This document shows positions 3,161 to 61,323 of a stretch of 64,000 nucleotides of DNA, piece after piece. The translations under genes were made by a program, and so were the position numbers. Source of the DNA: Candidatus Algichlamydia australiensis (lineage in GTDB: Bacteria > Chlamydiota > Chlamydiia > Chlamydiales > JAJFMI01); contig JAXCHI010000004.1 of assembly GCA_033977065.1 (NCBI GenBank), forward strand, positions 352,001-416,000, read 5' to 3'. The notes under the pieces are model-generated. The model did no database searches, had not been told where the DNA came from, and saw only the letters and a list, made by a program, of their open reading frames with translations. The first letter of the stretch is position 1. Each line of letters opens with the position of its first letter.

Positions 3161-3189
3161 TTGAAAACTTAATTACTGAACGCTATACT
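3161..3189 (+). promoter_or_regulatory. Housekeeping-sigma promoter of tpiA-secG, near-leaderless
   Basis: TTGAAA-17 bp-TATACT, then 5 nt to GTG 3195 (8 nt to ATG 3198). Confidence 0.8.
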
Positions 3190-3194
3190 GGGGC

Positions 3195-3938
3195 GTGATG
3201 GAACCGATCATTATCGCAAACTGGAAGATGCACAAGACCCATGAAGAGGCGCGCAGCTTTATCGAGGGATTAAAACCGCTTATAGCTGGTAAAAAAGCGT
3301 GGATTGCCTCCCCTTTTACGGCTATCTCTTCTGCTGTTGTTGCTGCGGAGGGGAGTGAGATTATGATTGGTGCTCAGAACATGCATGATGCGCTGCAGGG
3401 CGCTTTCACAGGCCAGATCTCAGCATCTATGCTCAAGGCCCATGGAGTTAAATTTGTTTTATTAGGTCATTCAGAGTGTCGCCATATTTTTAACGAGTCT
3501 GATGATCTTATTCGTCGCAAGCTAGAGCGCGCGTTGATGGAGGGACTTATCCCTGTGCTCTGTATTGGTGAGACTCTTAAAGAGCGGGAATCAGATCAAA
3601 CACATGCGGTTTTGAGAAGACAGTTAATGAGCGCTTTAGAGGGCACTACAGATTTTACACCTCTAATTGTCGCCTATGAGCCCGTTTGGGCAATTGGCAC
3701 AGGAAAAGTGGCGAGTCCAGAGCTGGCACAGGAGGCGCATCTTACGTGCCGTAAGATTTTAGCAGAATTAAGCAGCGAACAGGTCGCTGCAAGTATCCCG
3801 ATTCTCTATGGAGGATCGGTTAAACCAGAAAATATTGCGGGACTGCTTGCGCAGCCCGACGTTGAAGGAGCCTTAGTTGGAGGCGCCTCTTTGGATGTAA
3901 ATAGCTATCACCAACTGCTTTTGGGAGGAACCACATGA
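3195..3938 (+). CDS. tpiA: Triosephosphate isomerase
   Basis: ANWKM, LGHSE, AYEPVWAIGTG, YGGSV and LVGGASL motifs. Confidence 0.98.
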   Translation: MMEPIIIANWKMHKTHEEARSFIEGLKPLIAGKKAWIASPFTAISSAVVAAEGSEIMIGAQNMHDALQGAFTGQISASMLKAHGVKFVLLGHSECRHIFNESDDLIRRKLERALMEGLIPVLCIGETLKERESDQTHAVLRRQLMSALEGTTDFTPLIVAYEPVWAIGTGKVASPELAQEAHLTCRKILAELSSEQVAASIPILYGGSVKPENIAGLLAQPDVEGALVGGASLDVNSYHQLLLGGTT

Positions 3939-4225
3939 CCATTTTATTTTTTATTGGAATCGCACTCTTTTTGCTTTTAGCTTTTGTGCTCTGTGCTGTA
4001 ATTCTTATTCAAGAGAGCAAGAGCATGGGACTTGGCGCTGCTTTTGGTGGCGATAGTGGAAATGCGCTCTTTGGAACCGACACAGCAGATGTGTTAAAGA
4101 AGTTCACTGCAACGCTTGTTACGATTTTTATGATCTCTTGTATCGTATTGTCACTTTGGTCATCAGCGATGGGTCGCAAAGCTCCTGCGCCGATTCCCAC
4201 TACAATCGAGCAAGTCCAAGAGTAG
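3935..4225 (+). CDS. secG: Preprotein translocase subunit SecG
   Basis: Two TM helices around ILIQESKSMGLGAAFGG; follows tpiA. Confidence 0.93.
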   Translation: MTILFFIGIALFLLLAFVLCAVILIQESKSMGLGAAFGGDSGNALFGTDTADVLKKFTATLVTIFMISCIVLSLWSSAMGRKAPAPIPTTIEQVQE

Positions 4226-4250
4226 CATTGGATAGATTATCAGGTTCTAT

Positions 4251-5864
4251 CTAAGGCTTATTTTTTGAAGTAAATTCTTTTACTAGTGAGTTTGAAGCTG
4301 AGTAAAGCTTTCCCTCCCAGCTGTTAATATTGCGAGTTTCAGAAGAAAAATTGACTCCAAGAACAAGCGTATTTTTTTCGCTTTGTACAAATCGTTCTTT
4401 GTATTTTTTTGTCTCTGCCTGAGTAAGAGCAATCTCTGCTGTTTTATCAAGTTTAAGTTCAAAGATACAGATTGCTTCGGGTGTTTCTGTCATTAAATCA
4501 ATACGCCCAATATTGGTTGCGATCTCAGAGCTTGTTCTGACACCAGCAGTTTCCAAGAAAGTGAAAAACACTGCTTGGTAAAATCCCTCTTTTGCGCTGC
4601 TAAAAACATGGTAGGGCATTTTGGCAAAGTGCGTATTAATTATGTTTATGAGGGACGAAATGTCTAATTTTTCTAGGCTTTTTTTAATCTCTAGAGCACT
4701 GCGACTAATTTCAACTGGATCGATTTCCGTAAATTCTTGTAAAAGAGAGTTAAAAAAAGCATTTTTAACTTCTTTATTGGGAAAGTCAATTTTGTAAGAG
4801 CTCTCTTCTGGGTTATATCCTTTAATTGTTAAATACCCTGCTTGGAACATCAGGGCCGCCAGGTTAATTCTGTCTACTCTGCTAATATCCGAGAGCGTGC
4901 TCTCTATTGCAGACTTTCCCCTAAGAGGGATAATTGATTGGGGTTGGTTATTGATTTGGTCAATTAAGAATGAAGGTGTCCCAGAACTGTACCAGTAAGT
5001 TTTTGTCTCTTTTTCATCCATATAATTTAAGGTAGAAAAAGGATTGTAAACATATGTTTCGGCACGAGAGAATCTATAGCCGTTGTACCAAACGCGCAGC
5101 TCATCTAGTATTGCACTTTTAGTGACTTTATACCCCTGTTTTTCTCGGCTTGCAATGACGGATTGGATATGTTGGGGAAAATAGCTTTTAAGTTCATCTT
5201 CGGTGTATCCCATCATCCCAGCGTATCTTGAATCCATAGTGATATCTTTAAGATTATTAGGACCTGAAAAAAGGGAGACTTGAGAGAATTTGCTCACTCC
5301 TGTAACAAATGTAAATTTTAGATAGCGATCTAGACTCTTTAAAGTGGCGAAAAATCCCTTTAGAATATCTCGGTTTTTTTCTGCTGTTTCTGGATGCTTA
5401 AGGTTATTGATAATTGCGTTGTCGTACTCATCAACTAAAACCACCACACGGTTTTTTCGAGATAAATCCTCAACTAAAACTTTTAATTGAAACTGTAGCG
5501 ATGGCCCTTCTACAGAAATCCCGTACAATTCCCCCATTCTCTTTAATTCTGCTGCTAACCCAGCTTCAAGCTGATCTGATGTGGTATTTAAAATTTGAGC
5601 AAAATCAAAATGCAAGATTGGATATTTTTCCCACTTATAATTACTTTTATAGATTTCAAGGCCCTTAAAAAGTTCTTTATTTCCCTTAAAAATCTCTTCT
5701 AGCGTATTGAGGAATAGTGATTTTCCAAACCTTCTGGGGCGAGACATAAAATAGTGCTTCCCAATAGCTATTAAATCTCTAGCAAACCCAGTTTTATCTA
5801 CGTAAATACAATCTTCTTCTAAGATCTCACGAATAGTTTGGATTCCTATGGGTAGTTTCTTCAT
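4251..5864 (-). CDS. AAA-ATPase-like protein with C-terminal PD-(D/E)XK nuclease domain
   Basis: MKKLPIGIQT, YVDKT, SRPRRFGKSL (Walker A), LVDEYD (Walker B), WYNGYRF, YNPFS and GRIDL...IFELK. Confidence 0.92.
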   Translation of the reverse strand: MKKLPIGIQTIREILEEDCIYVDKTGFARDLIAIGKHYFMSRPRRFGKSLFLNTLEEIFKGNKELFKGLEIYKSNYKWEKYPILHFDFAQILNTTSDQLEAGLAAELKRMGELYGISVEGPSLQFQLKVLVEDLSRKNRVVVLVDEYDNAIINNLKHPETAEKNRDILKGFFATLKSLDRYLKFTFVTGVSKFSQVSLFSGPNNLKDITMDSRYAGMMGYTEDELKSYFPQHIQSVIASREKQGYKVTKSAILDELRVWYNGYRFSRAETYVYNPFSTLNYMDEKETKTYWYSSGTPSFLIDQINNQPQSIIPLRGKSAIESTLSDISRVDRINLAALMFQAGYLTIKGYNPEESSYKIDFPNKEVKNAFFNSLLQEFTEIDPVEISRSALEIKKSLEKLDISSLINIINTHFAKMPYHVFSSAKEGFYQAVFFTFLETAGVRTSSEIATNIGRIDLMTETPEAICIFELKLDKTAEIALTQAETKKYKERFVQSEKNTLVLGVNFSSETRNINSWEGKLYSASNSLVKEFTSKNKP

Positions 5865-10535: not shown

Positions 10536-11624
10536 TTAGAAGATATTCTGGTATTTCTTGGAAAGGGAATAAGTACGATTTTTATTTGATGGGTTTGCAA
10601 TTTCAAAAAAACCGGTCTCTACCCACTTCTGACAGAGTTGACGTGCGGTTCTAGGAGAAAAACTGAATAATTCAGCAATTAAAGAGGTTTTGACCTCTTC
10701 TGATGTCTCAAAAAGTTCCAATACTTTTCTTTGCTTAGGATCGAGTTTTCTTAATATAGGAGAGTGATCAACTTCGTTTTGCAGTAAGCTTCGCTCCATT
10801 TCTCTAATGACATTTTCAAAAGCAAAGGCCATGCCTTCGCAGAAATAGGAAATCCAGCCTGTGATATCAGCCTCAGCTCTACCCAAATAATAATTATGAG
10901 AAGGCCCGATGGTGATTGCCTCATAATATCTGGGAAGATTTTTGGCGTAGTACTCTTCAAGAGAGTAGAGCCCTTTTAGATCGTATCCTCCAAGATGGAG
11001 AACAAGTGTTGTTAGGAGCCTTGCGGTACGTCCATTGCCATCAAAATAGGGGTGAATTGTAGCAAATTGGTAGTGCGCAACTGCAGCGAGGACGGGGCAG
11101 GGGAGATGTTTGTTTTGATTTAGCCAATCAATCATTTGCTTCATCAGATTCGTTACATCTTTTGCCTCAGGTGGCATATAAACGATTTGTCCAGAGTAGC
11201 CATCACGAATGACATTTTGTCCATCACGATAAGGCGTAGGTTGCGCTTTTACTTTACCATCACTTATAACAAGCGCATGGAGAGTTTGAATAATTTTTTC
11301 TGTAATGCTGTTTTTTTCCTCTACATACATCTCAAGTTTTGCAAGTGCTGCGTAGTAGCCTTTCACCTCTTGTTCATCTCGCTCTCTTCCGGGGAAATGG
11401 CCGTTATGCTTAAGAACTTTTTTTACTTCCAACGGTTCCAGTTGATTGCCTTCAATCATTGTGGAGTAATGTGTGGTAAAGAGCTTGGCAGTTTGGCGTA
11501 AAGAGGTAAGAATCCTTGGATTTAGGGGGAGTGAGATCGATTTATTCTTGGCGTTTTCAATGCGAAGCAGATAGCTTGTAATTTCTTCTGTAAGGGTATA
11601 ATTAGGAGTAAACTTCTCATTCAT
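10536..11624 (-). CDS. Fic family protein with C-terminal HTH
   Basis: HPYFDGNGRTAR catalytic motif; STMIEGN inhibitory-helix motif; C-terminal wHTH-like segment (TSLIAELFSFSPRTARQLC). Confidence 0.95.
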   Translation of the reverse strand: MNEKFTPNYTLTEEITSYLLRIENAKNKSISLPLNPRILTSLRQTAKLFTTHYSTMIEGNQLEPLEVKKVLKHNGHFPGRERDEQEVKGYYAALAKLEMYVEEKNSITEKIIQTLHALVISDGKVKAQPTPYRDGQNVIRDGYSGQIVYMPPEAKDVTNLMKQMIDWLNQNKHLPCPVLAAVAHYQFATIHPYFDGNGRTARLLTTLVLHLGGYDLKGLYSLEEYYAKNLPRYYEAITIGPSHNYYLGRAEADITGWISYFCEGMAFAFENVIREMERSLLQNEVDHSPILRKLDPKQRKVLELFETSEEVKTSLIAELFSFSPRTARQLCQKWVETGFFEIANPSNKNRTYSLSKKYQNIF

Positions 11625-11632
11625 ACACCCCT

Positions 11633-11700
11633 ATTATGCCGATAAACCGCCGATAAGTCAAGGTGGAATGCCGATAAACCGCCGATAAACCGCCGATAAA
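11633..11700 (-). promoter_or_regulatory. fic promoter overlapped by five phased GCCGATAA(ACC) direct repeats
   Basis: Minus strand TTGACT(11661-11656)-17-CATAAT(11638-11633)-8 nt-ATG; repeats start at 11638, 11649, 11670, 11681 and 11692. Confidence 0.75.
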
Positions 11701-11898: not shown

Positions 11899-13796
11899 TT
11901 CTTCTTAGCCTTTGAAGGTTTTGCTGTTTGCTTGGAATTCTTTTCCTCTAGATCGATCCAAAGGGGAGAGCTCCAAGCGATATGACCATCTTTTTGCATT
12001 GCGCGCACGTAGTAGTAGCAGAAAGGAGAATGACCTTCAGGCTTTAGAGCAACTTTATCAAGAGGGTCGGTATCATCAACAGCGAATTCTAGTTTGTCTT
12101 CTTTAGGCTTGAAGGTTTTGTAGATTTCTCCATTACGAATTAAAAGAACTTCTTTGAGGTCGGTTGTTCCTGCAATAAATCCTTGGATATGGCGATTGAA
12201 TTGTAAACCGGGGCGATCTTTTAAAGAGATTTCTGCTCCCATATTCTCTTCTGCAATCAAAAGGCTTACAATCATGCGCTCACCAGTTGTTGCATAGCAA
12301 GATCTTTGGCTCAGTGCCTGCATCATGGCGTCACGCGTGTGTGTTTTTGCAATAATGGCAGTAAGTCCAGGAGAGTACTGGACTTGATCGGATTCGTAGA
12401 GGTGGTCAAAGGTTCCTCGATCGTCTAGCCCACCAGCAACAAACCCAAAGCGGCAGCCTGCGTTTAGTGCGGCACGGATGGATCCCTCTTTTGTTTCAGT
12501 ATAGTTTGTTTTAGATTCAATTGGGCGCGGGTTTCCTTCAGCCTTTGTACATTCAGATGAGCCCCAGCTATTATAGATCTCTACAACACGTTCGAACTCC
12601 GGATCGAATTCCTTAAAATCGTAGTGAACACCCTTTCCCATTGTGAAGGTTGGTATGGAAAGGATCTCTTTTGGTGTATGAGATTTATAAATCTTTTTTA
12701 ATTGGTTGGATTTTGGATCCTTTTTTCGGAGTAGGGGTTTATTATCTTTTGCATAGACGATTTGTCTTAGCCCTTCGGAACCTGCTGACCCGCTCCAAGA
12801 GAATCCAAGCATTGTTGAAAAGCGATCCTCTTCATTAAATTCTGCAACCTGTAAAGAGATGTTTTTCCAGATAGGGTTTGGGGTTTCTGCTTCGCTTTCA
12901 AAGTTTGAAGTGCCAAGAAATTGAAAAGCCTGATCGTCACGAAAGTAACGAAGCGCAGATTCAATGTTTTCTTGTGAATCGTAGCGTGTTGAGTCGCCGT
13001 GTAAAGATCCCCAGTAGAGACTCTTTTCTGAAGAGGGAACGCATTGAACAGGAGAGGAGTAAAAAATTTGATCTGTGCCTAGAATTTGCATTTTTAACTT
13101 GTAGATTCCCGGATCTGTAAAGTAAAAATTCGGAAGGGTGATAAAGCCCGTTTCTGGAACAAAAAGCTTCCAACTCAAGTTTTCGCGTTGTTGCTCATAA
13201 CTAAGCTCTACAAGTGTTCCTTCAGGTGCTAAGTTGGTTAGGTTGTTGAATTCGTCTTCAAAGCGGACAATAACATCGAAACGCTGCGAGCGACCAACTA
13301 GTGCAGGAGTAAGCATGCGCAAGTGGTGCAGTTTTTCACCGCGAACATCGAGAAAAAAAGATTCGGGATCTTTGTAATCTCCTTTGCCTTTTGTGTCGAT
13401 ATAGAGATGAAAAGGGCGACGTCTTTGCGTATAATACTGAGCACGATTGCTCGCTTTGTCGCCAGTTGTAGTACCGACATGAATGGCAATCTCTTCACCA
13501 GCCTTAATCTCTTTTGGGAGTACAAATTCATACTGCAGAGAAAAGGTTTTGGGGATCTCAATAGACTTTGCAGCAGAGACGCCACCATCAGGAAGGGAGA
13601 GCCATATCGAATTATTTTTTGTTTTTGGTCCCGTCTGCGGCTGCTGCCAATCGATGTCTCGCCCTTTTGAAAGGGGATCGAACTTGAGCTTTGTACCTTT
13701 GGGGAGATTATTTGAAGGAGTATAAATAAATTTCCAATTTCCTTCACTTCCAACACGAGCGAACTTAGGATCGCAATAACTGATAGATCTACGCAT
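11895..13796 (-). CDS. DUF3604-family PHP-like protein (chlamydial conserved hypothetical)
   Basis: YWGSLHGDS, VVEIYNSWGSSE, GCRFGFVAGGLDDRG and YYYVRAMQKDGHIAWSSPLW motifs. Confidence 0.8.
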   Translation of the reverse strand: MRRSISYCDPKFARVGSEGNWKFIYTPSNNLPKGTKLKFDPLSKGRDIDWQQPQTGPKTKNNSIWLSLPDGGVSAAKSIEIPKTFSLQYEFVLPKEIKAGEEIAIHVGTTTGDKASNRAQYYTQRRRPFHLYIDTKGKGDYKDPESFFLDVRGEKLHHLRMLTPALVGRSQRFDVIVRFEDEFNNLTNLAPEGTLVELSYEQQRENLSWKLFVPETGFITLPNFYFTDPGIYKLKMQILGTDQIFYSSPVQCVPSSEKSLYWGSLHGDSTRYDSQENIESALRYFRDDQAFQFLGTSNFESEAETPNPIWKNISLQVAEFNEEDRFSTMLGFSWSGSAGSEGLRQIVYAKDNKPLLRKKDPKSNQLKKIYKSHTPKEILSIPTFTMGKGVHYDFKEFDPEFERVVEIYNSWGSSECTKAEGNPRPIESKTNYTETKEGSIRAALNAGCRFGFVAGGLDDRGTFDHLYESDQVQYSPGLTAIIAKTHTRDAMMQALSQRSCYATTGERMIVSLLIAEENMGAEISLKDRPGLQFNRHIQGFIAGTTDLKEVLLIRNGEIYKTFKPKEDKLEFAVDDTDPLDKVALKPEGHSPFCYYYVRAMQKDGHIAWSSPLWIDLEEKNSKQTAKPSKAKKK

Positions 13797-13862
13797 AATA
13801 GGGGATTTTACATGACTTTTGATTCTTAGGCAAGGCTGTCGAAGGGTTTAGAAAAAAAATCT

Positions 13863-15152
13863 TTATGCAGACTTTCGTGGAGTAATACGCACCTTGTCGA
13901 TTGAGCGCTCATCAGCACTCTGGACTTCTAAATCAAAATTATCATGGTGGATTTTGAAACCTTTTTCAGGAATTAACCCACAAGACTGAACAATGTATCC
14001 TCCAAGGGTGTCGTAGTCGGGGCCCAGAGGAATTTGTATGCCAAGGTCGCGTTTGATATCAAGAAGACTCATCTTGGCGTCGACAATGTATCCTTTTTCG
14101 GGGTGGGGAGTGAAAGGAATTTCCTCATCTGTATCAAACTCATCTGCGATTTCTCCGACGAGCTCTTCTAAAATATCTTCGATAGAGACGATTCCTTCTG
14201 TGCCTCCATATTCATCAACAACGATTGCCATATGAATCTGTTTGCTACGAAATTCTTGAAGAAGTTGTGAAATACGCTTTGTTTCTGGTGTGTAAAGAAT
14301 GGGTTTGATTAGCTTTTCAAGTGGAATTTGATCAGGAGGCCCAAAGGTTTTGGGGTCAAGAAACGTCTCAAGAAGATCCTTGTAGTGAAGCACCCCGACG
14401 ATTTCATCAACAGAATCTTTGTAAATAGGGATCCGAGAGTAACCCTCTTTAATCAAATCAGAACCTGCATCTGCAATAGTAAGGTCTGCTGGAAGGCTAA
14501 AGATATCGACACGCGGAACCATCACTTCTCGTACAATGCGGTCTTTAAAGGTAGCAACAGAGCAGATGAGTTTTTGTTCTGAAACGGATAGTTCTTCTCC
14601 CATCTCTGTTTCATGAACCAGCTCTAAAATCTTTCTTTCAAGCTTTGGACCGCGCTCTGTCTCTTCGCGGTAGCGTGGAAAAAAGAGGCGTTGCACTTTA
14701 AGCAGCAGCGCTGTCAGAGGGAAAAAGAGAAGGAGAAAAACTGTGGCAAAAGGGTTGGAGAAACGTAGACAGAATTTTGGAGCGCCTTTTGCAAGCAAGC
14801 GTGTACCGAGGTCGAAGAGAAGAGAGAGGGCAATCAAAATAAGAAGAGAACCAAATCCAAGAAGAGAAAAAACACTTTCCAACTGATCAAGGCTACTGAG
14901 GTAGAAAAAGCCTAGAATCCCGTAGCAGAGCCTGCAGATCTGCTTACTCATACTAATCACAAAAAAGAGGTTTTCCCACTCCTCTTTGGGGAAAAAACGC
15001 TTGAGCAAACGAGGCAGAAAGTAAAATTTGGGTCTTCTGGCAAACTCTTTTTTCGACTCAATAAGGCCAAAGCGGTGCATTGCAACCGAATAAGCGGTCA
15101 GAGCGGTTGAGCCAAGCAGAAAAAGAATTGCAAAGAGGAGCCATGCCATCAT
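13863..15152 (-). CDS. HlyC/CorC family CBS-domain transporter (hemolysin-like)
   Basis: N-terminal TM region, VREVMVPR, GYSRIPIY, VVDEYGGTEGIVSIEDILEELVGEI and YDTLGG. Confidence 0.93.
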   Translation of the reverse strand: MMAWLLFAILFLLGSTALTAYSVAMHRFGLIESKKEFARRPKFYFLPRLLKRFFPKEEWENLFFVISMSKQICRLCYGILGFFYLSSLDQLESVFSLLGFGSLLILIALSLLFDLGTRLLAKGAPKFCLRFSNPFATVFLLLFFPLTALLLKVQRLFFPRYREETERGPKLERKILELVHETEMGEELSVSEQKLICSVATFKDRIVREVMVPRVDIFSLPADLTIADAGSDLIKEGYSRIPIYKDSVDEIVGVLHYKDLLETFLDPKTFGPPDQIPLEKLIKPILYTPETKRISQLLQEFRSKQIHMAIVVDEYGGTEGIVSIEDILEELVGEIADEFDTDEEIPFTPHPEKGYIVDAKMSLLDIKRDLGIQIPLGPDYDTLGGYIVQSCGLIPEKGFKIHHDNFDLEVQSADERSIDKVRITPRKSA

Positions 15153-15179
15153 ATCCGCATTGTAGCAAACTTATAGAGT

Positions 15180-18243: not shown

Positions 18244-18887
18244 GTGTTTACAGGCATATGTTCAGGTGTGATGACACCGCAAGATACGATGTACTTGATC
18301 GCTGTTTCAGGCTTCATGTCCAAAAAGGTAATATCCTCCTCTGCATACATTAAGAGAAAACCTGTGGTCGGGTTGGGGGTTGTCGGAATCAAAACAGAGA
18401 AAAGTTTTTTGCCCGCCTTTTCTGAACAGGTTTTTGGTGACTCCCGTGATACAAGGCCTAAGATATAACTTCCCTCCTTAGGAAAGGGAACCATCACAAC
18501 TTGTTTAAAGCTCGTCTTATCTGTGACAAAGAGCGTTTTGATAATCTCTTGCGTGGTCTTATATACTTTATTCACCAGCGGAATGCGATGCAAAATCCGA
18601 TCGCTTAGACTGATAAGCGACTTAAAGAAAAACCAGCGAGCGATCATTCCTAGTAAGATTGTAAAGGCAAAAATTCCTAAGAGAATGAGCAGTTGAGAGC
18701 CGTAGCGAATTAGCTGTTCAGGAGAAAGAAAGAGAAAACCTCGGTTAGCAATTCCTGTATTTCGTAAAAAGTCTGTCATTGCCCCAATAAAGGGTTGTGT
18801 CAAAAAGTTTACGATAAAAAAGATAATCGCAATCGTAACAGCAAGTGGGAGAAGAATGACCATCCCCGTAATAAAGTACTTCTTCAT
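18240..18887 (-). CDS. DUF502 family membrane protein (paralog 1)
   Basis: KYFITGM, RIPLVNKVY, VLIPTTPNPTTGFL and VSCG motifs. Confidence 0.9.
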   Translation of the reverse strand: MKKYFITGMVILLPLAVTIAIIFFIVNFLTQPFIGAMTDFLRNTGIANRGFLFLSPEQLIRYGSQLLILLGIFAFTILLGMIARWFFFKSLISLSDRILHRIPLVNKVYKTTQEIIKTLFVTDKTSFKQVVMVPFPKEGSYILGLVSRESPKTCSEKAGKKLFSVLIPTTPNPTTGFLLMYAEEDITFLDMKPETAIKYIVSCGVITPEHMPVNT

Positions 18888-18902
18888 TCTTACGAGTATA
18901 GC

Positions 18903-19913
18903 TTACAAAACATTACTTGCAAGGTAGGCATTGATTTCATTAATTATTTCTTCGATGATTTTTGGTAGATCTAGATCATAAGCTTGATTTGCAACTGACA
19001 AATAATGCGCGCTCCATAATCTTTGTAAGCTCTTAAGTGCACCATCCGAGAAATTTACAAGACCAGCAGCTGTTTTTCTTTTAGAAAAAGTTTTATGCAC
19101 CTGCTTTCGTAATTTTTCCGTATTCAGCCTCTCTTTGTTTTTCAGAATTATAAATAAATCGTGATAATCTTTCATCCTGCTGTTTAATGAACCTTTTGAA
19201 ATCACTGTTTCAACTTTTTCTGAAAAAATAGCCCCGATTGGGTAAGTTTTTAAAACAATATCTCCTAGAAATAAAGGATTGTTTCGAAATTTCACTTGTG
19301 GGATTTCTCTTTCTGTCGGTTCGACAAGATCTCCAATGCCTATATCTAATCGAATTTGGTCTCGCATGGCTCCAAAATTCGCAGATAAAAATATACGAAA
19401 TCCAGGGTATAGCATGTGCCTTTGCATTAACGATTTAATTTTAACTAAATGAAATGCAAATCCATCTTCAAGTCGCATTGAAGCAATTTCTTCGAAAACA
19501 TAGTATAGCCTTGATTCTTCTGCATCAATTTGTCTAAGTAAAAAACTCAAGTTGCTACCCCCTTCCTCCTCTGGAGAGACCCTTTTTGCGATCTGTTTAG
19601 TTTAAAATTTCAGAAATGTTTAACAAACATTCCTTCAATTTGAAACGAAACATCTCATCAAAAATCCCTCTCTCCATAGGCGAAACTGGGTAGCAACTTG
19701 AGTTAAAAAGTCTAAATCGACAGTTTCTCGACCAATTCTCAGCAGGTAGGAAAGAAGAAAACCACCTTTAAAAACAAGCTTTTCACGATAGGGAGAAAGC
19801 GAAATTCTTGCTAAAAATCGTTCAAGCAATAGTCTCTTCCAACAATAGTTGAAAGAGACGTTGTTTCTTGCTGCAATGATCCTAATGCGATCTTTTAGTG
19901 TTTGTTCATTCAA
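18903..19913 (-). pseudogene. AbiEii-type nucleotidyltransferase toxin interrupted by a 159 bp element
   Basis: N-part ERFLARIS...VFKGGFLL...RETVDLDFL; C-part DIGIGD, SEKVET, NSRMKDYHD. Removing 165 nt rejoins DLDFL-LRQI into 281 aa. Confidence 0.92.
19545..19703. mobile_element. Hairpin element family D (159 bp MITE-like, 6 bp target duplication)
   Basis: Perfect TIR ACTCAAGTTGCTACCC; TAAAAA duplicated at 19539-19544 and 19704-19709; nested internal inverted repeats. Confidence 0.92.
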
Positions 19914-20490: not shown

Positions 20491-20496
20491 GTCTGT

Positions 20497-20545
20497 ATTT
20501 TAATATTAACACCCAATAACGTCAAATGGGTGTTAATATTAAAAT
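20497..20545. promoter_or_regulatory. AbiE operator inverted repeat overlapping a leaderless promoter
   Basis: Perfect 19 bp arms ATTTTAATATTAACACCCA / TGGGTGTTAATATTAAAAT with 11 bp spacer; minus strand TTGACG-17-TAAAAT-6 nt-ATG. Confidence 0.85.
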
Positions 20546-21105: not shown

Positions 21106-21151
21106 CTCTAAATAGTTTATGCAAGAATAAGAAGGTAGTCAAGTGGTGGGA

Positions 21152-44516: not shown

Positions 44517-44892
44517 CAACAGCACTAAGCGCGTCTACGTTTTGCGCGCGCTTTTTGCGATTGATTCCGGCACGCCCCATCTCTTTTTCTACAAGAGTTG
44601 AGGTTAAGCGCTCATCAATAAGATGAACTCTCTTTCCTGAAACTTCCTCTAAAAGTTTTGCAAACAGGCGCACCTCTTTGGACATCTCGCTCTCATTTCC
44701 TGAGAGATGGAGAGGTAGACCAACAACAAAAGCTTCAAAAGGATCTTCAAGAGAAGAAAGAATTTTTTGAATCGAATCCTTATGCTCCTTTTCTGCTTTG
44801 ATTGTAGGAAGAGGGGACGCAAGAATCCCCATTGGATCGGATTTGGCAATCCCAATTCGCGCTCTGCCGTAGTCAATGCCAATGTATCTCAT
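44449..44892 (-). CDS. ruvX: YqgF/RuvX pre-16S rRNA nuclease
   Basis: GIDYGRARIGIAKSD, VVGLP, DERLTS and VDALSA. Confidence 0.95.
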   Translation of the reverse strand: MRYIGIDYGRARIGIAKSDPMGILASPLPTIKAEKEHKDSIQKILSSLEDPFEAFVVGLPLHLSGNESEMSKEVRLFAKLLEEVSGKRVHLIDERLTSTLVEKEMGRAGINRKKRAQNVDALSAVVILQSWLEANFSAPHSFDPIDQ

Positions 44893-44939
44893 GGCAAAAA
44901 GTCTAACACACTTATCAATTTTTTGCTACAATTCGCAAT

Positions 44940-46508
44940 ATGGGTACATTTGAGAATCAAAGAAAAGAGTATAAACCTACTCTTCCTGCAGTATTAAAAA
45001 ATTTAAAAGAGCTTCACTTCAAAGAGGTCATGAATGTCGACCACGACGAAGAGATTAAAGAGCGTTTCCCACTCAGTAGCCATGATGCCCTTTTAAGGGC
45101 AGAGGTGGGTGATGAGACCAAAACAAAAAGTTTAAAAGTTGGAGTAGTCTTTTCAGGTGGTCAAGCATCAGGAGGACACAATGTGATCACGGGTCTCTTT
45201 GATGGTCTTAAGAAATTGAATGAGAACTCTGAACTCATCGGATTTTTAGGTGGTCCCAGCGGTATCATAGAAAATCGCACAAAAAAGTTAGATGAGGAGT
45301 TGCTTCAAGAATTTCGCAATATGGGCGGATTTGACCTCATTGGATCGGGGCGCACAAAAATTGAAACAGATGAGCAGTTTGCCAGCTCCCTTGAAACAGT
45401 TAAAAAGCTAGAACTCAATGGCCTTGTGATTATTGGCGGTGATGACTCCAATACGAATGCAGCCCTACTTGATGAGTATCTTCGCAAACATGAAATCGAT
45501 TGCAAGGTTGTGGGTGTGCCCAAAACCATCGATGGCGATCTGCAAAATGAGTGGGTCCAGATCTCTTTTGGATTTGATAGTGCCTGCCGCGTCTACAGTG
45601 AGATGATTGGCAATATTGAGCGCGATTGCCTCTCTGCAAAAAAGTATACGCACTTTGTAAAATTGATGGGACGCTCCGCTTCTCATATCGCTTTGGAATG
45701 TGCGCTTGCTACACAACCTAATAAAACCATTATTGGAGAAGAGGTAGCACGAGATGAAAAGACACTTTCGCAAATCACCTACGAAATCGCCTCCCTCATT
45801 GAAAAGCGCTCAGCCAAAGGCAAAGACTATGGCGTCATCCTTATCCCAGAAGGTCTCATTGAGTTTATCCCAGAAGTTAAGGCTCTTATTGCAGAGATCA
45901 ATAAATTGATCGCCTCAGGGGAGCAAAATCCGGAAACCAAACTTTCTGAAAAGTGCCAAGCTACTTTTTCCTACCTTCCGGAGCGCATCCAGAAACAGCT
46001 TCTGTTAGAGCGTGATCCTCATGGTAATGTGCAAGTCTCTAAGATCGACACACAAGAACTTTTAATTGAAACCGTTACTAATGAAATAAAAAAACATCGC
46101 GATTTTAAAGGAAAATTTAACCCTGTAAGTCATTTTTTTGGCTACGAGGGCCGCGCAGGCTATCCCACGAACTTTGATGCAACTTATTGCTATGCATTGG
46201 GGCAGACAGCCGCTCTTTTAATCGAGGAGGGTCACTCTGGTTTTATGGCGGCACTTGGCGGGTTGACCAAACCTCCAGAGGAGTGGGAACCTCTTGGAGT
46301 CCCTATCACAAGCTTAATGCACTTTGAAATGCGAAAAGGCAAAAGAAAACCTGTAATCTCAAAAGCATTGGTTGATCTTTCAGGAAAAGCCTTCCGCCGC
46401 TTTGCAGAAAAACGCTCTGAGTGGGCGATGAACGACGCGTATCTTTTTCCTGGGCCGACACAGTATAGCGGTGATGAGACCCTTTTGCCGCCCCACATTA
46501 TCGAATAA
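44940..46508 (+). CDS. pfp: Pyrophosphate-dependent phosphofructokinase
   Basis: SGGQASGGHN, GGDDSNTNA, PKTIDGD and LMGRSASH. Confidence 0.95.
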   Translation: MGTFENQRKEYKPTLPAVLKNLKELHFKEVMNVDHDEEIKERFPLSSHDALLRAEVGDETKTKSLKVGVVFSGGQASGGHNVITGLFDGLKKLNENSELIGFLGGPSGIIENRTKKLDEELLQEFRNMGGFDLIGSGRTKIETDEQFASSLETVKKLELNGLVIIGGDDSNTNAALLDEYLRKHEIDCKVVGVPKTIDGDLQNEWVQISFGFDSACRVYSEMIGNIERDCLSAKKYTHFVKLMGRSASHIALECALATQPNKTIIGEEVARDEKTLSQITYEIASLIEKRSAKGKDYGVILIPEGLIEFIPEVKALIAEINKLIASGEQNPETKLSEKCQATFSYLPERIQKQLLLERDPHGNVQVSKIDTQELLIETVTNEIKKHRDFKGKFNPVSHFFGYEGRAGYPTNFDATYCYALGQTAALLIEEGHSGFMAALGGLTKPPEEWEPLGVPITSLMHFEMRKGKRKPVISKALVDLSGKAFRRFAEKRSEWAMNDAYLFPGPTQYSGDETLLPPHIIE

Positions 46509-47787: not shown

Positions 47788-48060
47788 ATAGTTTGTTTTC
47801 TAATCTCAATTTTTTCGCAAAAATTGGGAGTTGAATTTTGCAAGTGGTTAAATATCAGAAAGATCAATAGAAAAGCAATTTTTGCAACCACCAAACTCTT
47901 CGACAGGGTCGTCTTCACCGACCATTTTGCAAGGTGTACAACCAAGAAATAATAGAAAAAATAGGGCTAATCGCTTCATGTCTTCTACATAGCTTTTATT
48001 TGGATTTAATTAAAGATTTGTCGGTTGATTGCGGTTGAAGAAATCGTTACAATGGTTGCT

Positions 48061-49665
48061 ATGCGTAGGAAAACAAGAGAAATTTTAGTAGGCAATGTGG
48101 GTGTTGGAGGGGGGAATCCTGTCCGCATTCAGTCGATGACAACCTCCCCAACAGATGATGTTAAGGCGACTGTTGATCAAATTTTGCGTCTTGAGGAGGT
48201 AGGCTGTGAGATTGCGCGGGTCACTGTCCAAGGGAAGAAGGAGGCGCGAGCTTGCGAGAATATTAAAAATTCTTTAATTCAAAAGGGGTCTCGTATCCCT
48301 CTTGTTGCAGACATCCATTTCTATCCTCCAGCTGCGATGCTAGTTGCGGACTTTGTTGATAAGGTGCGTGTCAATCCGGGTAACTATCTCGATCGGCGTG
48401 CTACATTTAGAAACGACGCGGCATTTGATGATCAAGCATATATCGAAGAGGGGTTTTCTCCGCTGGTTTTAAAGTGCAAGAGTTTGGGGCGTGCAATGCG
48501 AATTGGCACAAATCACGGCTCTTTATCTGATCGCATTATGTGTAAATATGGCGATACTCCTCAAGGAATGGTGGAGTCAGCTATCGAATATGCAAAGGTC
48601 TGCCGCACGCATGACTATCATAATTTTCTTTTTTCAATGAAATCCTCAAATCCTCTGATAATGATTCAGGCGTATCGTCTGTTGGTACAGAGAATGGATG
48701 AGCTAAGTTGGGATTATCCTCTCCATCTGGGCGTAACTGAAGCTGGTGATGGTGAAAATGGACGTATCAAGTCTGCTGTTGGAATTGGCGCGCTGCTTTT
48801 AGAAGGTCTAGGTGACACAATTCGTGTTTCTCTTACCGAAGATCCTTGGTTAGAGATCGATTCCTGCAAACGGCTTCGCGATTTTGCAGAAAAATCGGAA
48901 AAAAGACGCGCAAAGTGGGGTGAGATTCCTGTTCGTCAAAAATTAGAGGATCCCTACCTCCATCCTGATGGCTCCGTGGTTGCGCATGTTTCAAAAGAAG
49001 ATTTAGAACGCCCCGACTTTTTTGAAGCGATTGGGTGTGATCTCTATCTAGGGCGGCCGCAGAAAGGAGAGTTTTGTGCAGATGCGATCTATGTTGAAAA
49101 GATTGATAAGGAGAAAAAGACGTTGCTTGAGACAGCAGGTATTGGCGTTTTTACGACTCCTCACCCTGCGATTTTGCACTACGCCTCTGACGTCTCTTAT
49201 GAGGATTTGCTAATTCAAGCAAGCGCGAAAGTGGGCGCTATTTTAGCTGATGGCATTGGACATGGAGTCTGTATTGAAGGCTCTTATCCTCTCGAAAAAA
49301 AGATCGATTTTTCTTTTAAACTCTTGCAAGCGTGCCGGATGCGCGCCACTAAGACAGAATTTATCTCTTGCCCAAGTTGTGGAAGGACACTTTTTGACTT
49401 GCAGGAAGTGACACAGAAGATTCGCGAGCGTACAGACCACTTGCCAGGTGTAAAAATTGCAATTATGGGCTGTATTGTCAACGGTCCTGGTGAGATGGCA
49501 GATGCGCACTTTGGCTATGTTGGCTCCGGTAAAGGAAAAATTGATCTCTATGTGGGTAAAGAGCGTGTAGAGAAGGGGATTCCAGAAGGAGAGGCTGTGG
49601 ATAGACTGATTGCTCTGATCCAATCGCATGGAATGTGGGTGGAACCCCTTGTATTAAATTCTTGA
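48061..49665 (+). CDS. ispG: 4-hydroxy-3-methylbut-2-enyl diphosphate synthase
   Basis: RIQSMT, VADIHF, RIGTNHGSL, CPSCGRT and MGCIVNGPGE; start at MRRKTRE is supported by TTGATT-17-TACAAT-7-ATG. Confidence 0.96.
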   Translation: MRRKTREILVGNVGVGGGNPVRIQSMTTSPTDDVKATVDQILRLEEVGCEIARVTVQGKKEARACENIKNSLIQKGSRIPLVADIHFYPPAAMLVADFVDKVRVNPGNYLDRRATFRNDAAFDDQAYIEEGFSPLVLKCKSLGRAMRIGTNHGSLSDRIMCKYGDTPQGMVESAIEYAKVCRTHDYHNFLFSMKSSNPLIMIQAYRLLVQRMDELSWDYPLHLGVTEAGDGENGRIKSAVGIGALLLEGLGDTIRVSLTEDPWLEIDSCKRLRDFAEKSEKRRAKWGEIPVRQKLEDPYLHPDGSVVAHVSKEDLERPDFFEAIGCDLYLGRPQKGEFCADAIYVEKIDKEKKTLLETAGIGVFTTPHPAILHYASDVSYEDLLIQASAKVGAILADGIGHGVCIEGSYPLEKKIDFSFKLLQACRMRATKTEFISCPSCGRTLFDLQEVTQKIRERTDHLPGVKIAIMGCIVNGPGEMADAHFGYVGSGKGKIDLYVGKERVEKGIPEGEAVDRLIALIQSHGMWVEPLVLNS

Positions 49666-56774: not shown

Positions 56775-57959
56775 TTATGCTGAGGTTTTCAGAGTCTCTT
56801 TGCTGTACTCAAAAAAGATAGAAGAGTCGATGCCCTTGTACTTAAGGTAAGGAGAGCCAAAAAACTGAATCGCTTTTCGACCAATTTTGTATCCTACTTC
56901 TGGGATGATTTTTGATGGCTTGCATGACCAGCCATCTTCATTAATTGTGGTCTGAAATAAGAAATATTTAATTGCCCAGCAAGCAGTTCCAACTAAACTG
57001 ATTGCAGTTGCAGCAAGGGAAATGCTCAAAACAGATGTAAAAGGGAGCAGAACCATATAGGTAAAGGAGAAGAGAACACCAACGAGGGAAATTGCGCCAA
57101 TTAAAAGCCGTTTTTCGCACTGCTTTTTCACCTTTAACATCAGCTCATGTGCCTCAGCTTTTTCAGCTTTAGAACCAGACTTTGCATAGTTAATTAGAAT
57201 AGGAAGATCATCGCAAATTTGTTTAGCAAGGCGAGGGCGAACCACTCTTGAGAGTTGGCGGACTTTTTCGGTAAGAAGGTCATCTTTTAGCTCTTTAATT
57301 CTTTCAGGAGAACCTAAACCTTTTTTCTCAATTTTGGCCAATTCATCTTCTGAAAGAGAGAGATAATTATCGCGAATTGTCTTAAGATCCTGCAATACAA
57401 AATCTTTGTCATGCGTAAACTGTTTATGAAATTTTACTGTTCTATAAATCCATCTTCCTTGAATCAAAAATTCAAGAGCACAGAGAAGAGATCCTGTAAG
57501 AGAAAGGGAGTTAATCATAGAAGCTGTAATCGAAATAGGAATGAAAAAGAAAGTGATGAATTCAGTAGCGTATTTCCAAATGTTGATTGTGGCGTAGTAG
57601 AGATACCCAACAAGTTGGGGAAGAGTTAAGACGAGTTCAGAAACAGTTTGATAGTCTTTTCTTTTTACTTCATCCTTAGTAAAGCTAAACCACTCTTTAA
57701 GAGCGAGAAGATAGGGAAGAACTGCAGCAACGCCAAAAGTACCGGGGAGGTTACTGGCTCCCGTCCCGTCATAAAGCTCTTTTTCAGGCACCTCAAGCTT
57801 TTTACTCTGAATATGCTCTAATCTTTTCTGTTCTAAAGATGTAGCAGTGAGTATCCCACTGGGTACGTAAGTGCCCATATCGATGATAGGAGTAGAGGGA
57901 GAGAGTTGTCCCAGATCCTCTAGGCCGGGAGTTGTAAAACCTTCTTCGATGTTATTCAT
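56775..57959 (-). CDS. Membrane protein with bilobed hydrophobic segments (Inc-like candidate)
   Basis: Disordered N-terminus; ~50 aa hydrophobic hairpin LIGAISLVG...WAIKYFLF; helical middle region. Confidence 0.65.
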   Translation of the reverse strand: MNNIEEGFTTPGLEDLGQLSPSTPIIDMGTYVPSGILTATSLEQKRLEHIQSKKLEVPEKELYDGTGASNLPGTFGVAAVLPYLLALKEWFSFTKDEVKRKDYQTVSELVLTLPQLVGYLYYATINIWKYATEFITFFFIPISITASMINSLSLTGSLLCALEFLIQGRWIYRTVKFHKQFTHDKDFVLQDLKTIRDNYLSLSEDELAKIEKKGLGSPERIKELKDDLLTEKVRQLSRVVRPRLAKQICDDLPILINYAKSGSKAEKAEAHELMLKVKKQCEKRLLIGAISLVGVLFSFTYMVLLPFTSVLSISLAATAISLVGTACWAIKYFLFQTTINEDGWSCKPSKIIPEVGYKIGRKAIQFFGSPYLKYKGIDSSIFFEYSKETLKTSA

Positions 57960-58066
57960 TACTTAATTATATAATATTAACAATTTATTTACAATCGCAT
58001 AAGTTGTTAACAATTAGCATCTTAAAATGTATAGAATCTTTTTTCTTAAGAGGTTATGCTGCAATT

Positions 58067-58702
58067 ATGAAGAAATTTTTCCTTATCCTTGTCATTTTGG
58101 CCCTATCATCTAGTGTTTTTGCTGATTACAAGGCCAAAGACTATTCTTACCTTTTAGGTCACGTAAAAGGGCTAGATGACTCCCTTCTGAAGATGCATTT
58201 TACTCTCTATCAAGGCTATGTAAAAAATACAAACAGTCTCCTTGCAACTATTGAAGAGCTATCAAAGTCGGGAAAAGATCGCACAGCTGCCTATGGAGCT
58301 CTTAAACGTCGTGTTGGATGGGAGATGGACGGGATGCTTCTCCACGAACTCTACTTTTCAAATCTTGGCGGAAAAGGGAACCTCGATTCAAATTCTCCAC
58401 TTTATAAAGCGATTGTCAGCGATTTTGGCAGCTATGAAAGTTGGAAAAAAGACTATATTGCAACCGGCATGATGCGGGGAATCGGCTGGGTGATCCTCTA
58501 TCGCGATCCTAAAAACAGACGTTTACAGAATATCTGGATTGAGGAGCATGATCTTGGCCACATCGCAGGTGGAACTCCAATTCTTATTATGGATGTTTGG
58601 GAGCACGCCTACATTACCCAATTTGGGTTAGATCGCGCCGGCTACATCAACACTTTTTTTCAAAATATCAATTGGAAAGAGGTTGAGCAGAGAGTAAAAT
58701 AG
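58067..58702 (+). CDS. Fe/Mn superoxide dismutase family protein with signal peptide
   Basis: MKKFFLILVILALSSSVFA leader; HFTLYQGYV, LHELYF and DVWEHAY ligands. Confidence 0.9.
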   Translation: MKKFFLILVILALSSSVFADYKAKDYSYLLGHVKGLDDSLLKMHFTLYQGYVKNTNSLLATIEELSKSGKDRTAAYGALKRRVGWEMDGMLLHELYFSNLGGKGNLDSNSPLYKAIVSDFGSYESWKKDYIATGMMRGIGWVILYRDPKNRRLQNIWIEEHDLGHIAGGTPILIMDVWEHAYITQFGLDRAGYINTFFQNINWKEVEQRVK

Positions 58703-58802
58703 GTGTTTTTTTTGAAAACCTGGAGCTGTTTTGTCTCTCTGTAGGAAAAATCGGGTAGTAACCTGAGTTTAACAAATTCTTAAAATCTGCAATAATAGCG
58801 AC

Positions 58803-59375
58803 ATGGATTTCATTAAGCTTTTACAAAAAGGGGAAGTGATCGGTTTTCCCACGGATACAGTTTATGGTATTGGAGCAGCCTTCAGCCAAATATCTGGAAT
58901 TCAAAAAATTTATGCAATTAAAGGGCGTCCAGAAACAAAGCCATTAATTGCACACGTAAGCTCTTTTGAAATGGCAGAAGCGCTTTTTGAAAGCCCCTCT
59001 AAACGCTTTTATGAGCTCGCCAAAGAGCATTGGCCGGGTCCTGTTACACTTATAGATAAAAAAGCATCCCATGTTTCTGATCTTATTACGGCCAATTTGC
59101 CTACGATCGGTGTTCGCATACCGAATTGCCAGCAGACTCAAGATTTAATTGAAAAGCTAGGAGAGCCTCTTATTGGCACTTCAGCAAACTACTCTGGAGG
59201 CGACCCCCTCTTTTCCCATATAGAAGCAGAAAAACTCTTTGGTAATAAACTGGCAGGGTACTTAGAAGGGAGTGCTTCTCTAAAAGTACCTTCAACAGTT
59301 TACTCTCTTTTCGATGGGCAGATCTTACGAAGAGGATCGACTCAACTTACTGCAAAAATCAGTACTGATCTGTAA
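58803..59375 (+). CDS. tsaC: Threonylcarbamoyl-AMP synthase (Sua5/TsaC)
   Basis: FPTDTVYGIG, KGRP, WPGPVT, TSANYSG and PSTV. Confidence 0.93.
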   Translation: MDFIKLLQKGEVIGFPTDTVYGIGAAFSQISGIQKIYAIKGRPETKPLIAHVSSFEMAEALFESPSKRFYELAKEHWPGPVTLIDKKASHVSDLITANLPTIGVRIPNCQQTQDLIEKLGEPLIGTSANYSGGDPLFSHIEAEKLFGNKLAGYLEGSASLKVPSTVYSLFDGQILRRGSTQLTAKISTDL

Positions 59376-59792: not shown

Positions 59793-59847
59793 ACAATCTA
59801 TTGAATTCTGTTAAAACTATATTAATACTAGTAATAAGTTTAATATA

Positions 59848-59900
59848 ACTCAAGTCATTACCCAGTCTCTCCAAAGGGGGAAGAGGGTAGCAATTTGAGG
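59848..59900. repeat. Internally deleted miniature of family D
   Basis: ACTCAAGTCATTACCCAGT (16/19 to one end) joined to 59865-59899, which matches the other end at 31/35. Confidence 0.8.
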
Positions 59901-59945
59901 TAACGATCGAGAGCAAACTTGAATACACCTTAAAAGCCCTAAAAA

Positions 59946-61235
59946 TTAAAAAAGGCACGAGACAAGGTAGAGAGGAAAATTGGCAATTTTGCCATCAATT
60001 TTGAGATTCATCAGCGTCGCTCTGCAAAGCCTTTCTGGAGCGTACTTGTCAGCATACACAAGCAGACTCTTTTTCTTTGGGCTCGTTCCGGACTTGACTT
60101 CAAGGGGATAAATCTCATGGTCGCACTCGAGAAGAAAATCAATTTCTGCTGTGCCACTACTTTTCCAATAGTAAAGATTGTGCCTGCGGCTAGGTATGAG
60201 CTCTTGTGCAATGAAATTTTCTGTTAATGCTCCCTTGAATTCTGTGAACATCCGATTGCCATCTAAAATTGTTTTGGCATTGAGATTGCTTTGTGCAGCA
60301 AGAAGGCCTACATCAAGTGAGAAGATTTTAAAAATATGCTCTTCAGAATAGGCACTTAAGGGGAATTTTGGTGTTAGGACAAGAGAGCTTTTATGAATAA
60401 GACCTGCATCTAAGAGCCACTGAATTGCTTCTTCGTAGTCTCGAGCTCGTGCACTTTTACGAATGGTAGAAAAGATGAATTTTTTGTTTTCTTTGGCAAG
60501 TTGTTTGTGAATGAGCTTCCAGACCGTTGTGATTTTCATCACTTGATTGGGTGGAGCGTGTTTTGCAAAATCTTTTTCATATGCATCTAAAATTTCCTCA
60601 TGCACTTCGCGAGCAGTAGATAAATTTTGATGTTTTCGGTATTCACTAACCGCTTCGGGCATTCCTCCGACAAACATGTAAATCTTCAAAAGTTTAGTTA
60701 GCTCATCATGAAAGGTGATTGATTCAAAAGATTGGATGTTTTCTAAGTAGGTTCGCTTTTTTGATTCGCCCATTGCTGAGAGGAATTCAAAGAAGGTGAG
60801 GGGATAGAGGTGTAAAAAATTAACTTTTCCAACGGGAAAGCCCTTTTCTTGTGTGGTTTTAACCCCAAGAAGCGAACCAGCTGCCGCAACATGGTACTCT
60901 TTTGCTTCTTCGCAAAAGTATTTTAAGCAATTGAGCGCTCGAGGGCACTCTTGGATTTCATCAAAGATAATCAGAGTATTTTTAGGCTCTATTTCAACCT
61001 CTGCATGAATTGCTAAAGTTTTGAGAAGCTCATGGGGATCTAGAGTTGTTTTAAAGTAGGAATGGAGTTTTTCACTTTTTTCAAAGTTAAAATAGACAAA
61101 TTTTTTGTAAGCTGTTTGACCAAAATGCTTAAGAGCATAAGTTTTACCAACTTGTCTAGCACCATTGATAATCAGCGGCTTACGTCGAGGGGATTTTTTC
61201 CACTCTTCTAAAGATTTATAAATATCTCTTTTCAT
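59946..61235 (-). CDS. AAA+ ATPase with DUF4143 domain
   Basis: GARQVGKT, FDEIQE, AGSLLG, GGMPEA and AEIDFL...PLEVKS. Confidence 0.92.
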   Translation of the reverse strand: MKRDIYKSLEEWKKSPRRKPLIINGARQVGKTYALKHFGQTAYKKFVYFNFEKSEKLHSYFKTTLDPHELLKTLAIHAEVEIEPKNTLIIFDEIQECPRALNCLKYFCEEAKEYHVAAAGSLLGVKTTQEKGFPVGKVNFLHLYPLTFFEFLSAMGESKKRTYLENIQSFESITFHDELTKLLKIYMFVGGMPEAVSEYRKHQNLSTAREVHEEILDAYEKDFAKHAPPNQVMKITTVWKLIHKQLAKENKKFIFSTIRKSARARDYEEAIQWLLDAGLIHKSSLVLTPKFPLSAYSEEHIFKIFSLDVGLLAAQSNLNAKTILDGNRMFTEFKGALTENFIAQELIPSRRHNLYYWKSSGTAEIDFLLECDHEIYPLEVKSGTSPKKKSLLVYADKYAPERLCRATLMNLKIDGKIANFPLYLVSCLF

Positions 61236-61323
61236 ACCTTAAAAATAACCTTTCTTCCCTTAAAAAGCAATTATTCCTCAGGAAAACGTGGTTGAATTTC
61301 GCTTTATTCGTTGGAAAAACGTG

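Follow-up and report, generated by a model that had tools for sequence, protein, structure and literature searches.

The window analyzed here, a 64-kb stretch of Candidatus Algichlamydia australiensis DNA (G000:C4:352001-416000; positions within it are counted from its first nucleotide), belongs to a genome (G000) of 1.80 Mb in 7 contigs with ~42% G+C. It contains 18 genes in front of which a promoter-like string ends a few nucleotides before the proposed start codon, and these junctions between promoter and start codon are the subject of this study. An earlier note on this DNA had interpreted them as leaderless-type promoters that are pervasive in the genome. On re-reading, the -35 boxes, spacers, -10 boxes and start distances claimed for all 18 strings were found in place. 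In addition, 14 of the 18 passed a stringent rule for "strong" sites, which demands TANNNT with at least 4/6 matches to TATAAT, accompanied either by TGn or by a -35 box (at least 4/6 matches, summed score at least 9).

Among the 14 junctions passing this rule, tpiA (3161..3200, plus strand) reads TTGAAA-17-TATACT-8-ATG, with the ATG at 3198. The start had previously been placed at GTG 3195, 5 nt behind the TATACT; the two boxes are present, but ATG 3198 is the more likely start, since the orthologue in a genome of the same genus begins at the matching ATG, likewise as TATACT-8-ATG, and GTG and TTG starts show no genome-wide excess. Further junctions with a -35 box are those of the DUF3604 gene (13794..13833, minus strand; TTGCCT-17-TAAAAT-8-ATG), the DUF502 gene (18885..18922, minus strand; TTGCAA-16-TATACT-7-ATG), which lies 15 nt from the upstream same-strand open reading frame (ORF), an abiEi-like ORF (20488..20525, minus strand; TTGACG-17-TAAAAT-6-ATG) followed downstream by an AbiEii ORF, mpg (21103..21142, minus strand; TTGACT-17-TAAACT-8-ATG), ugd (33635..33675, minus strand; ATGACT-17-TATACT-9-ATG), ispG (48025..48063, plus strand; TTGATT-17-TACAAT-7-ATG, at the third candidate start, 48061), and ORF 57959 (57957..57994, minus strand; TTGTAA-17-TATAAT-6-ATG). 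For rnr (24497..24534, minus strand) the string is TTGTCG-17-TGGTACAAT-6-ATG. TGn together with a poor -35 is found at the CorC/HlyC-CBS gene hlyC (15150..15167, minus strand; TGCTACAAT-6-ATG, an extended -10), ORF 21484 (21468..21486, plus strand; TGCTACAAT-7-ATG), tsaD (37629..37647, minus strand; TGCTAAAAT-7-ATG at the second ATG, 37631), ruvX (44890..44908, minus strand; TGTTAGACT-7-ATG) and pfp (44924..44942, plus strand; TGCTACAAT-7-ATG). The start codons of ruvX and pfp are only 47 bp apart (44893-44939), each half of this divergent region holding its own extended -10, and each -35 region would overlap the promoter or start of the other gene.

The remaining four junctions failed the rule. 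The -10 of fic (11622..11661, minus strand; TTGACT-17-CATAAT-8-ATG) does not conform to TANNNT, and the same applies to tsaC (Sua5; 58769..58805, plus strand; TTAACA-16-TGCAATAAT-6-ATG), which has TGn in front of AATAAT. The AAA_14/DUF4143 gene (61233..61270, minus strand; TTGCTT-17-TATTTT-6-ATG) is a weak case, and sod (58052..58069, plus strand; TATGCT-6-ATG) is the weakest, having neither a -35 nor TGn and carrying AGAGG upstream. These last two may, as single cases, be due to chance.

The names given to the 18 genes held for 15 of them, which have Pfam support (TIM, Fic, DUF3604, CorC_HlyC/CBS, DUF502, MPG, RNB, UDP-glucose dehydrogenase, TsaD, RuvX, PFK, GcpE, SOD, Sua5, and AAA_14/DUF4143), whereas the abiEi-like ORF, ORF 21484 and ORF 57959 had no Pfam hit at E<=1e-5. 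The domains also bear on the start codons, as those of TIM, RuvX, MPG, UGD, GcpE, Sua5 and RNase R begin within 1-10 residues of the proposed methionine. TIM position 1, for instance, falls on residue 3 of the tpiA product and GcpE position 1 on residue 5 of the ispG product, the RuvX profile (1-133) covers residues 1-133, UDPG_MGDP_dh_N starts from residue 5 in ugd, and Pur_DNA_glyco from residue 10 in mpg. For ybeY (16362-16817, minus strand) the product from the first ATG has 102 aa and matches Pfam YbeY only from position 44; the true start is therefore probably located upstream, at GTG 16751 or TTG 16817.

Next to these junctions, the window contains the contrasting set of genes led by a Shine-Dalgarno (SD) motif that the earlier note had described. 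SD motifs were found at an hctB-like gene (53320, plus strand; AAAAGGAGAAGATAGTT-ATG), ORF 24653/24662 (CCCAGGAGGAACGC-ATG), secG (GGGAGGAACCAC-ATG), the ORF pair 55695 and 56528, and a 59-aa ORF at 49696. The 3' end of the 16S rRNA of G000, GGATCACCTCCTTT, is intact and canonical. The ORF at 53320-53964 (plus strand) encodes a histone-H1-like, Lys/Ala-rich repeat protein of 214 aa (MATKRKKSTAKRKPAAKK...), which we take to resemble chlamydial Hc2/HctB; an antisense ORF over the same interval is a repeat artefact. Upstream of an ankyrin-repeat gene (43107-44516) lies an extremely A/T-rich stretch (43050-43106) with several overlapping TATAAT-like boxes (GGTATAATATTATTAATTATATTTTATTTTATATTAATT), in which no single clear promoter could be assigned.

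Genome-wide, sites were scored on a home-made gene set of 1,504 genes covering 90% of the genome, obtained by applying a codon log-odds filter to long ORFs. The spacer was counted as the number of nucleotides from the end of the -10 box to the ATG, and sites were scored at every upstream distance of the first ATG. Two choices of start were used, namely the first ATG (727 operon-first genes) and up to five ATGs per gene (1,390 genes), with 200 dinucleotide shuffles of the 60 nt or 45 nt in front of the ATG as null. With the first-ATG choice, 18, 14, 24, and 17 strong sites were found at spacers of 6, 7, 8, and 9 nt, respectively, followed by a trough of 0-5 per position at spacers 10-17, a second, broad hump of about 6-16 per position at spacers 22-34, and a background of about 1.8 per position at spacers 40-99. 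In total, strong sites at spacer 6-9 mark 73 of the 727 operon-first genes, as compared to 7.7+-2.8 (maximum 16) in the 60-nt and 7.8+-2.7 in the 45-nt shuffles, so that the positional enrichment over shuffled sequence, proposed beforehand as a check, was indeed observed. This sharp peak places the box at a fixed short distance before operon-first starts, as is characteristic of leaderless genes.

With the five-start rule, by which tsaD and ispG are recovered, 126 of 1,390 genes were hit. Eleven control offsets yielded 16-29 genes each, and the excess amounts to ~105 genes; for operon-first genes only, the counts were 81/690 (12%) against 10-18. A histogram of bare TANNNT upstream of starts showed a modest peak only (5-7% vs. 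2-4% per position), and genome-wide counts of the word TGnTAnnnT-N(6-9)-ATG relative to other spacings, taken regardless of gene context, did not separate the genomes compared (ratios 0.8-1.7).

The boxes located at this distance have the surroundings of genuine promoters. TTG is found 16-18 nt upstream of TANNNT at spacer 6-9 in 29.1% of 179 cases, compared to 3.9% at a control offset (11-13 nt), and TG occupies positions -15/-14 in 25.1%, compared to 4.9% for boxes located 61-150 nt upstream. When aligned, the 142 hits read TTG...T-TGnTAnAAT, with T in 67% and G in 68% at -15/-14, which corresponds to an extended -10 element, although the selection rule itself accounts for part of this enrichment. 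TG at these positions, one base before the -10 hexamer, can replace a good -35.

The start codons of the hits are equally distinctive. ATG accounts for 126 of the 142 hits, though for only 2,230 of 4,105 candidate starts; with 16 hits, GTG/TTG starts do not rise above their control offsets (16-30). In E. coli, efficient leaderless initiation requires an AUG start. The nucleotide at -1 is a pyrimidine in 85 of 112 candidates. The same holds for 729 of 1,379 other genes (p=1.6e-6), and for 384 of 654 if only the other operon-first genes are counted; C alone is at 36% compared to 17%. Together with A+1 and T+2, this pyrimidine matches the Y-R-Y "start element" which, according to a 2025 study, has its centre at the transcription start in bacteria (PMC12641261). 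In their second codon, leaderless-type genes carry A at the middle position in 56% of cases, as compared to 39% for other genes, and many of them begin with ATGAAA or ATGGAA; this bias may reflect a preference for certain bases downstream of the start, on the part of either leaderless messages or the initially transcribed stretch.

SD cores, on the other hand, precede only 5 of the 112 candidates, as opposed to 201 of the remaining 654 operon-first genes and 210 of the 586 located inside operons. The proposed N-termini are also well conserved, since alignments with homologues begin at residue 5 or earlier for 44 of 57 candidates, compared to 400 of 602 other genes, and at residue 10 or earlier for 48 of 57, compared to 467 of 602. 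Position, promoter identity, restriction to ATG, the pyrimidine at -1, SD depletion, and N-terminal conservation thus all emerge directly from the computation. Apart from the position, none of these features had served to choose the sites, and they agree with a transcription start on the ATG.

With regard to the size of this class, the 727 operon-first genes fall into 73 with a leaderless-type site at spacer 6-9 (SD core in 5%), 139 with a strong site 18-35 nt upstream, indicative of a short leader (SD core in 44%), 90 with a strong site 36-120 nt upstream (28%), and 425 without a strong site within 120 nt (27%). From these counts, probably ~100-125 of the ~1,500 genes (7-8%), and ~10% of operon leaders, are leaderless. 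By our estimate, the leaderless type would make up about a quarter of the operon leaders with a recognisable nearby promoter and thus form a substantial minority.

The earlier proposal of two initiation modes is therefore borne out insofar as a statistically strong fusion of promoter and start codon exists beside SD-led genes. In contrast, the notion that the leaderless mode is pervasive and serves most housekeeping operon leaders does not agree with 73/727 (10%) operon-first genes, or 126/1,390 genes with the looser choice of start. The impression arose because the window is unusually rich; with 14 leaderless-type genes out of 55 it is the richest stretch, aligned 64-kb bins containing 4.3 on average and 10 at most. 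Over 400-kb pieces of the genome, the share among operon-first genes varies between 5.2% and 14.1%. The suggestion that exported proteins are preferentially SD-led also found no support when a hydrophobic N-terminus was used as a crude proxy for export, the proportions being 27/126 (21%) for leaderless-type, 110/443 (25%) for SD-led, and 222/924 (24%) for other genes. Contig C1 (87,402 bp) has 37.6% G+C, compared to ~42% for the other large contigs, and 0 of its 61 genes are leaderless-type where ~5 would be expected; this contig might represent a plasmid, a genomic island, or DNA of foreign origin.

Different explanations for these junctions have to be considered. Since bare TANNNT is common (2-7% per position upstream of starts) and four of the 18 initially selected cases are weak, the strings could be chance matches in A/T-rich intergenic DNA, picked by eye. 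For the set as a whole this is ruled out by the shuffles, by the control offsets and by two control genomes processed with the same pipeline (G103 and G078), in which no peak appears, which makes an origin by chance scarcely credible. It could also be argued that the start codons are misassigned, the true starts lying downstream, such that the promoters would give rise to normal short leaders. The first-ATG rule is in fact sometimes wrong, as tsaD, ispG and ybeY need other starts, and 55 of the 112 candidates have no homologue in ~2 Mb of relatives' DNA, which leaves their starts unchecked. However, candidate N-termini align better than those of other genes and the Pfam domain starts agree with them, the corrected starts of tsaD and ispG are themselves leaderless-type, and there is no reason why a promoter should be placed exactly 6-9 nt from an ATG that is not a start. 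We therefore regard general misassignment as very improbable.

More weight has to be given to the idea that the promoters are real but secondary or internal, with the main transcripts originating further upstream and carrying leaders, the leaderless route being minor, and with boxes lacking a -35 or TGn perhaps representing unstructured or S1-binding RNA. It is in line with this idea that for 45 of the 126 hits the gene is not the first of its operon but lies behind a same-strand gene (by 15 nt for DUF502 and 48 nt for the abiEi-like ORF), and that the 176 genes with bare TANNNT at spacer 6-9 have a pyrimidine at -1 in 61%, near background, so that most of these boxes do not mark start sites. 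For the same reason, most of the real cases seem to be covered by the stringent set. If a longer leader were normally used, however, the restriction to ATG, the pyrimidine at -1 and the scarcity of SD cores would be unexpected; moreover, the other 81 of the 126 hits are operon-first, and the 47-bp gap between ruvX and pfp is too short for leaders, except if each promoter were located inside the other gene. This alternative thus appears unlikely, if less so than the two others.

Several further points weigh against an interpretation of the junctions as leaderless. The gene set and the rule for strong sites are both our own, the transcription starts are read from the sequence rather than mapped on RNA, and upstream promoters could add leadered transcripts. 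Among divergent gene pairs no more than 60 bp apart, TANNNT is present on at least one side in 31 of 50, compared to 57 of 123 pairs at least 150 bp apart, which ties short divergent gaps only loosely to the motif. Finally, the spacers are distributed flatly over 6-9 nt (38, 38, 37, and 29 of the 142 hits), unlike the 6-8 peak that the GeneMarkS-2 report gives for Mycobacterium tuberculosis (PMC6028130), and part of the set may therefore have leaders of 1-3 nt. Considering both sides, it appears likely to us that the junctions of the window and their counterparts throughout the genome are leaderless-type fusions of promoter and start codon, the transcription start and the mode of translation being predictions of this model.

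According to this model, the promoters would be of the ordinary housekeeping-sigma kind (sigma-70/sigma-66 type), many of them with an extended -10 (T-TGnTAnAAT). With the end of the -10 box 6-9 nt before the ATG, RNA polymerase would start on the A of the ATG or within ~3 nt of it. As this geometry leaves no room for a transcribed SD, the ribosome would have to load on the 5'-terminal AUG, as it does on leaderless mRNAs elsewhere. The remaining genes have either a short leader with an SD or nothing recognisable as a signal.

To place G000 within its order, which comprises dozens of families, a family sample of 8 genomes was processed with the same pipeline, using 354-400 kb per relative; P values are Poisson probabilities against each genome's own 40-99-nt background and refer to operon-first genes at spacer 6-9. 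G000 itself belongs to a small family (f1), for which two other genomes were found. Signals weaker than in G000 but significant (3.5-6.2%) were obtained for G002 of the same family (6/119, 5.0%, P 0.0042), G029 (f28; 10/161, 6.2%, P 0.00038), G009 (f8; 8/177, 4.5%, P 5.6e-6), G191 (f31; 6/149, 4.0%, P 0.0047) and G019 (f18; 6/171, 3.5%, P 0.0015). No peak was found in G078 (f33, 35% G+C; 2/165, 1.2%, P 0.62) and in G103 of the Chlamydia family (1/199, 0.5%, P 0.88). Since the result for G103 agrees with published differential RNA sequencing (dRNA-seq) of Chlamydia, this genome serves as negative control for the pipeline. Family f32 is the Chlamydia family, as full-length MOMP genes are present in 27/27 of its genomes. 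In a class-wide search for the MOMP family (PF01308), f32 genomes had single or double full-length genes and f31 genomes 4-32 partial matches each; G000 had one weak match (E 1.2e-6).

Divergent pairs with first ATGs no more than 60 bp apart, a measure that is independent of any motif and shows the same tendency, make up 50/233 (21%) of such pairs in G000, 29% in G002, 21% in G029, 18% in G009, 13% in G019, 6% in G191, 2% in G078 and 8% in G103.

Individual genes were also followed into relatives. The DNA comparison within the genus (window 3001-23000, 20 kb) had partial coverage at ~75% identity on fragmented contigs and was used for tpiA and DUF502 only, while the same-genus orthologue of pfp was located by protein search. 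Beyond the same-genus orthologue, the tpiA genes of three other families have a strong promoter of the leaderless type (in G029, for instance, TTGTCA-17-TGTTATGAT-8-ATG), and those of several others are clearly SD-led. In the same genus, pfp is preceded by TGCTAGAAT-6-ATG and the back-to-back ruvX start is also kept; in G029 and G191 pfp is SD-led. DUF502 has another upstream neighbour in the same-genus genome, yet its TATACT is retained there at 8 nt from the ATG. On the same-genus contig (G001:C84), rnr comes next after the DUF502 gene, its 3' end lying ~66 bp away, and the block with the AbiEii/abiEi-like pair, mpg and ORF 21484 (window 18903-22629) is missing at this place; three genes of this variable block carry leaderless-type promoters in G000.

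Orthologues of G000 candidates are leaderless-type in 5/16 cases in G029, compared to 22/189 for other genes, in 2/15 in G002, compared to 2/189, and in 0/12 and 0/20 in G078 and G103, respectively. Of the G000 genes resembling those that are leaderless in Chlamydia (yjjK-, yceA-, and glgX-like candidate orthologues), the CBM48 gene has a strong leaderless-type promoter and the ABC-F and UPF0176 genes have none. The former, a gene of 670 aa with a CBM48 domain (C4:216723, plus strand; glgX- or glgB-like), reads TTGAGT-17-TGTTACTAT-6-ATG. glgX belongs to the five mRNAs that were mapped as leaderless in C. pneumoniae.

The significant peaks in other families, the switching of tpiA and pfp, and the excess among G029 orthologues led us to a tentative reading, which we put at somewhat less than an even chance: the leaderless start might be a labile second mode across many families outside the Chlamydiaceae, with orthologues flipping between SD-led and promoter-fused starts, which the Chlamydia family and at least one further lineage would have lost or would never have expanded. 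Such a mode could provide separately controllable messages, e.g., for the developmental cycle.

The earlier note had also regarded such promoters as undescribed for Chlamydiae, and no description was found in the literature on Chlamydia, Chlamydiae, and five environmental chlamydial genera. The main text of Zheng et al. (2011) does not mention chlamydiae, and in the analysis of Nakagawa et al. (2017; PMC5397173) Chlamydiae score negative on the leaderless/S1 component. Table S4 of the GeneMarkS-2 report assigns 15/17 Chlamydiae and 8/8 Parachlamydiales to the SD-dominated group A (PMC6028130), and the Chlamydiota entries given by a 2025 compendium of 49 bacterial data sets on transcription start sites are two Chlamydia species only (PMC12641261). 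The two mapped species do not represent the order as to where messages start and how they are translated. SD-tuned gene finders will misplace starts in such genomes, as illustrated by tsaD and ispG, whose promoter-marked starts are the second and the third ATG, respectively. The ~100 genes form a testable set for a differing use of leaderless messages across the chlamydial developmental cycle. It has to be kept in mind that the mechanism as such is familiar and that only a modest share of the genes is concerned.

In Actinobacteria and Deinococcus-Thermus, leaderless mRNAs have been described in detail, as has their promoter signature. Group C of the GeneMarkS-2 report is characterized there by a Pribnow box at a distance of 6-8 nt to the start codon and by 25-50% leaderless transcripts (PMC6028130). 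G000 resembles members of this group, such as M. tuberculosis and Deinococcus deserti, in having a -10 at a fixed short distance before operon-first starts, no SD at these genes, and coexisting SD-led genes. It differs from them in its spacers of 6-9 instead of 6-8 nt, in an excess confined to ATG, and in its TGn-rich promoters (G at -14 in 68%, partly via the rule); besides, the ~10% of operon-first genes in G000 remain below the 25-50% of transcripts in group C. In Chlamydia, leaderless transcripts do occur, and the sigma-66-type machinery as well as the phylum are the same. The dRNA-seq reports list 3 leaderless transcripts for C. trachomatis, with TSSs assigned for 317 protein-coding genes, and 5 of 437 for C. 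pneumoniae, with leaders peaking at 21-40 nt (PMC2817459, PMC3333780). While leaderless messages thus amount to ~1% of mapped mRNAs there, the predicted class of G000 is about ten times as frequent. What is described here is a known mechanism, newly quantified in a lineage whose published model organisms almost lack leaderless messages.

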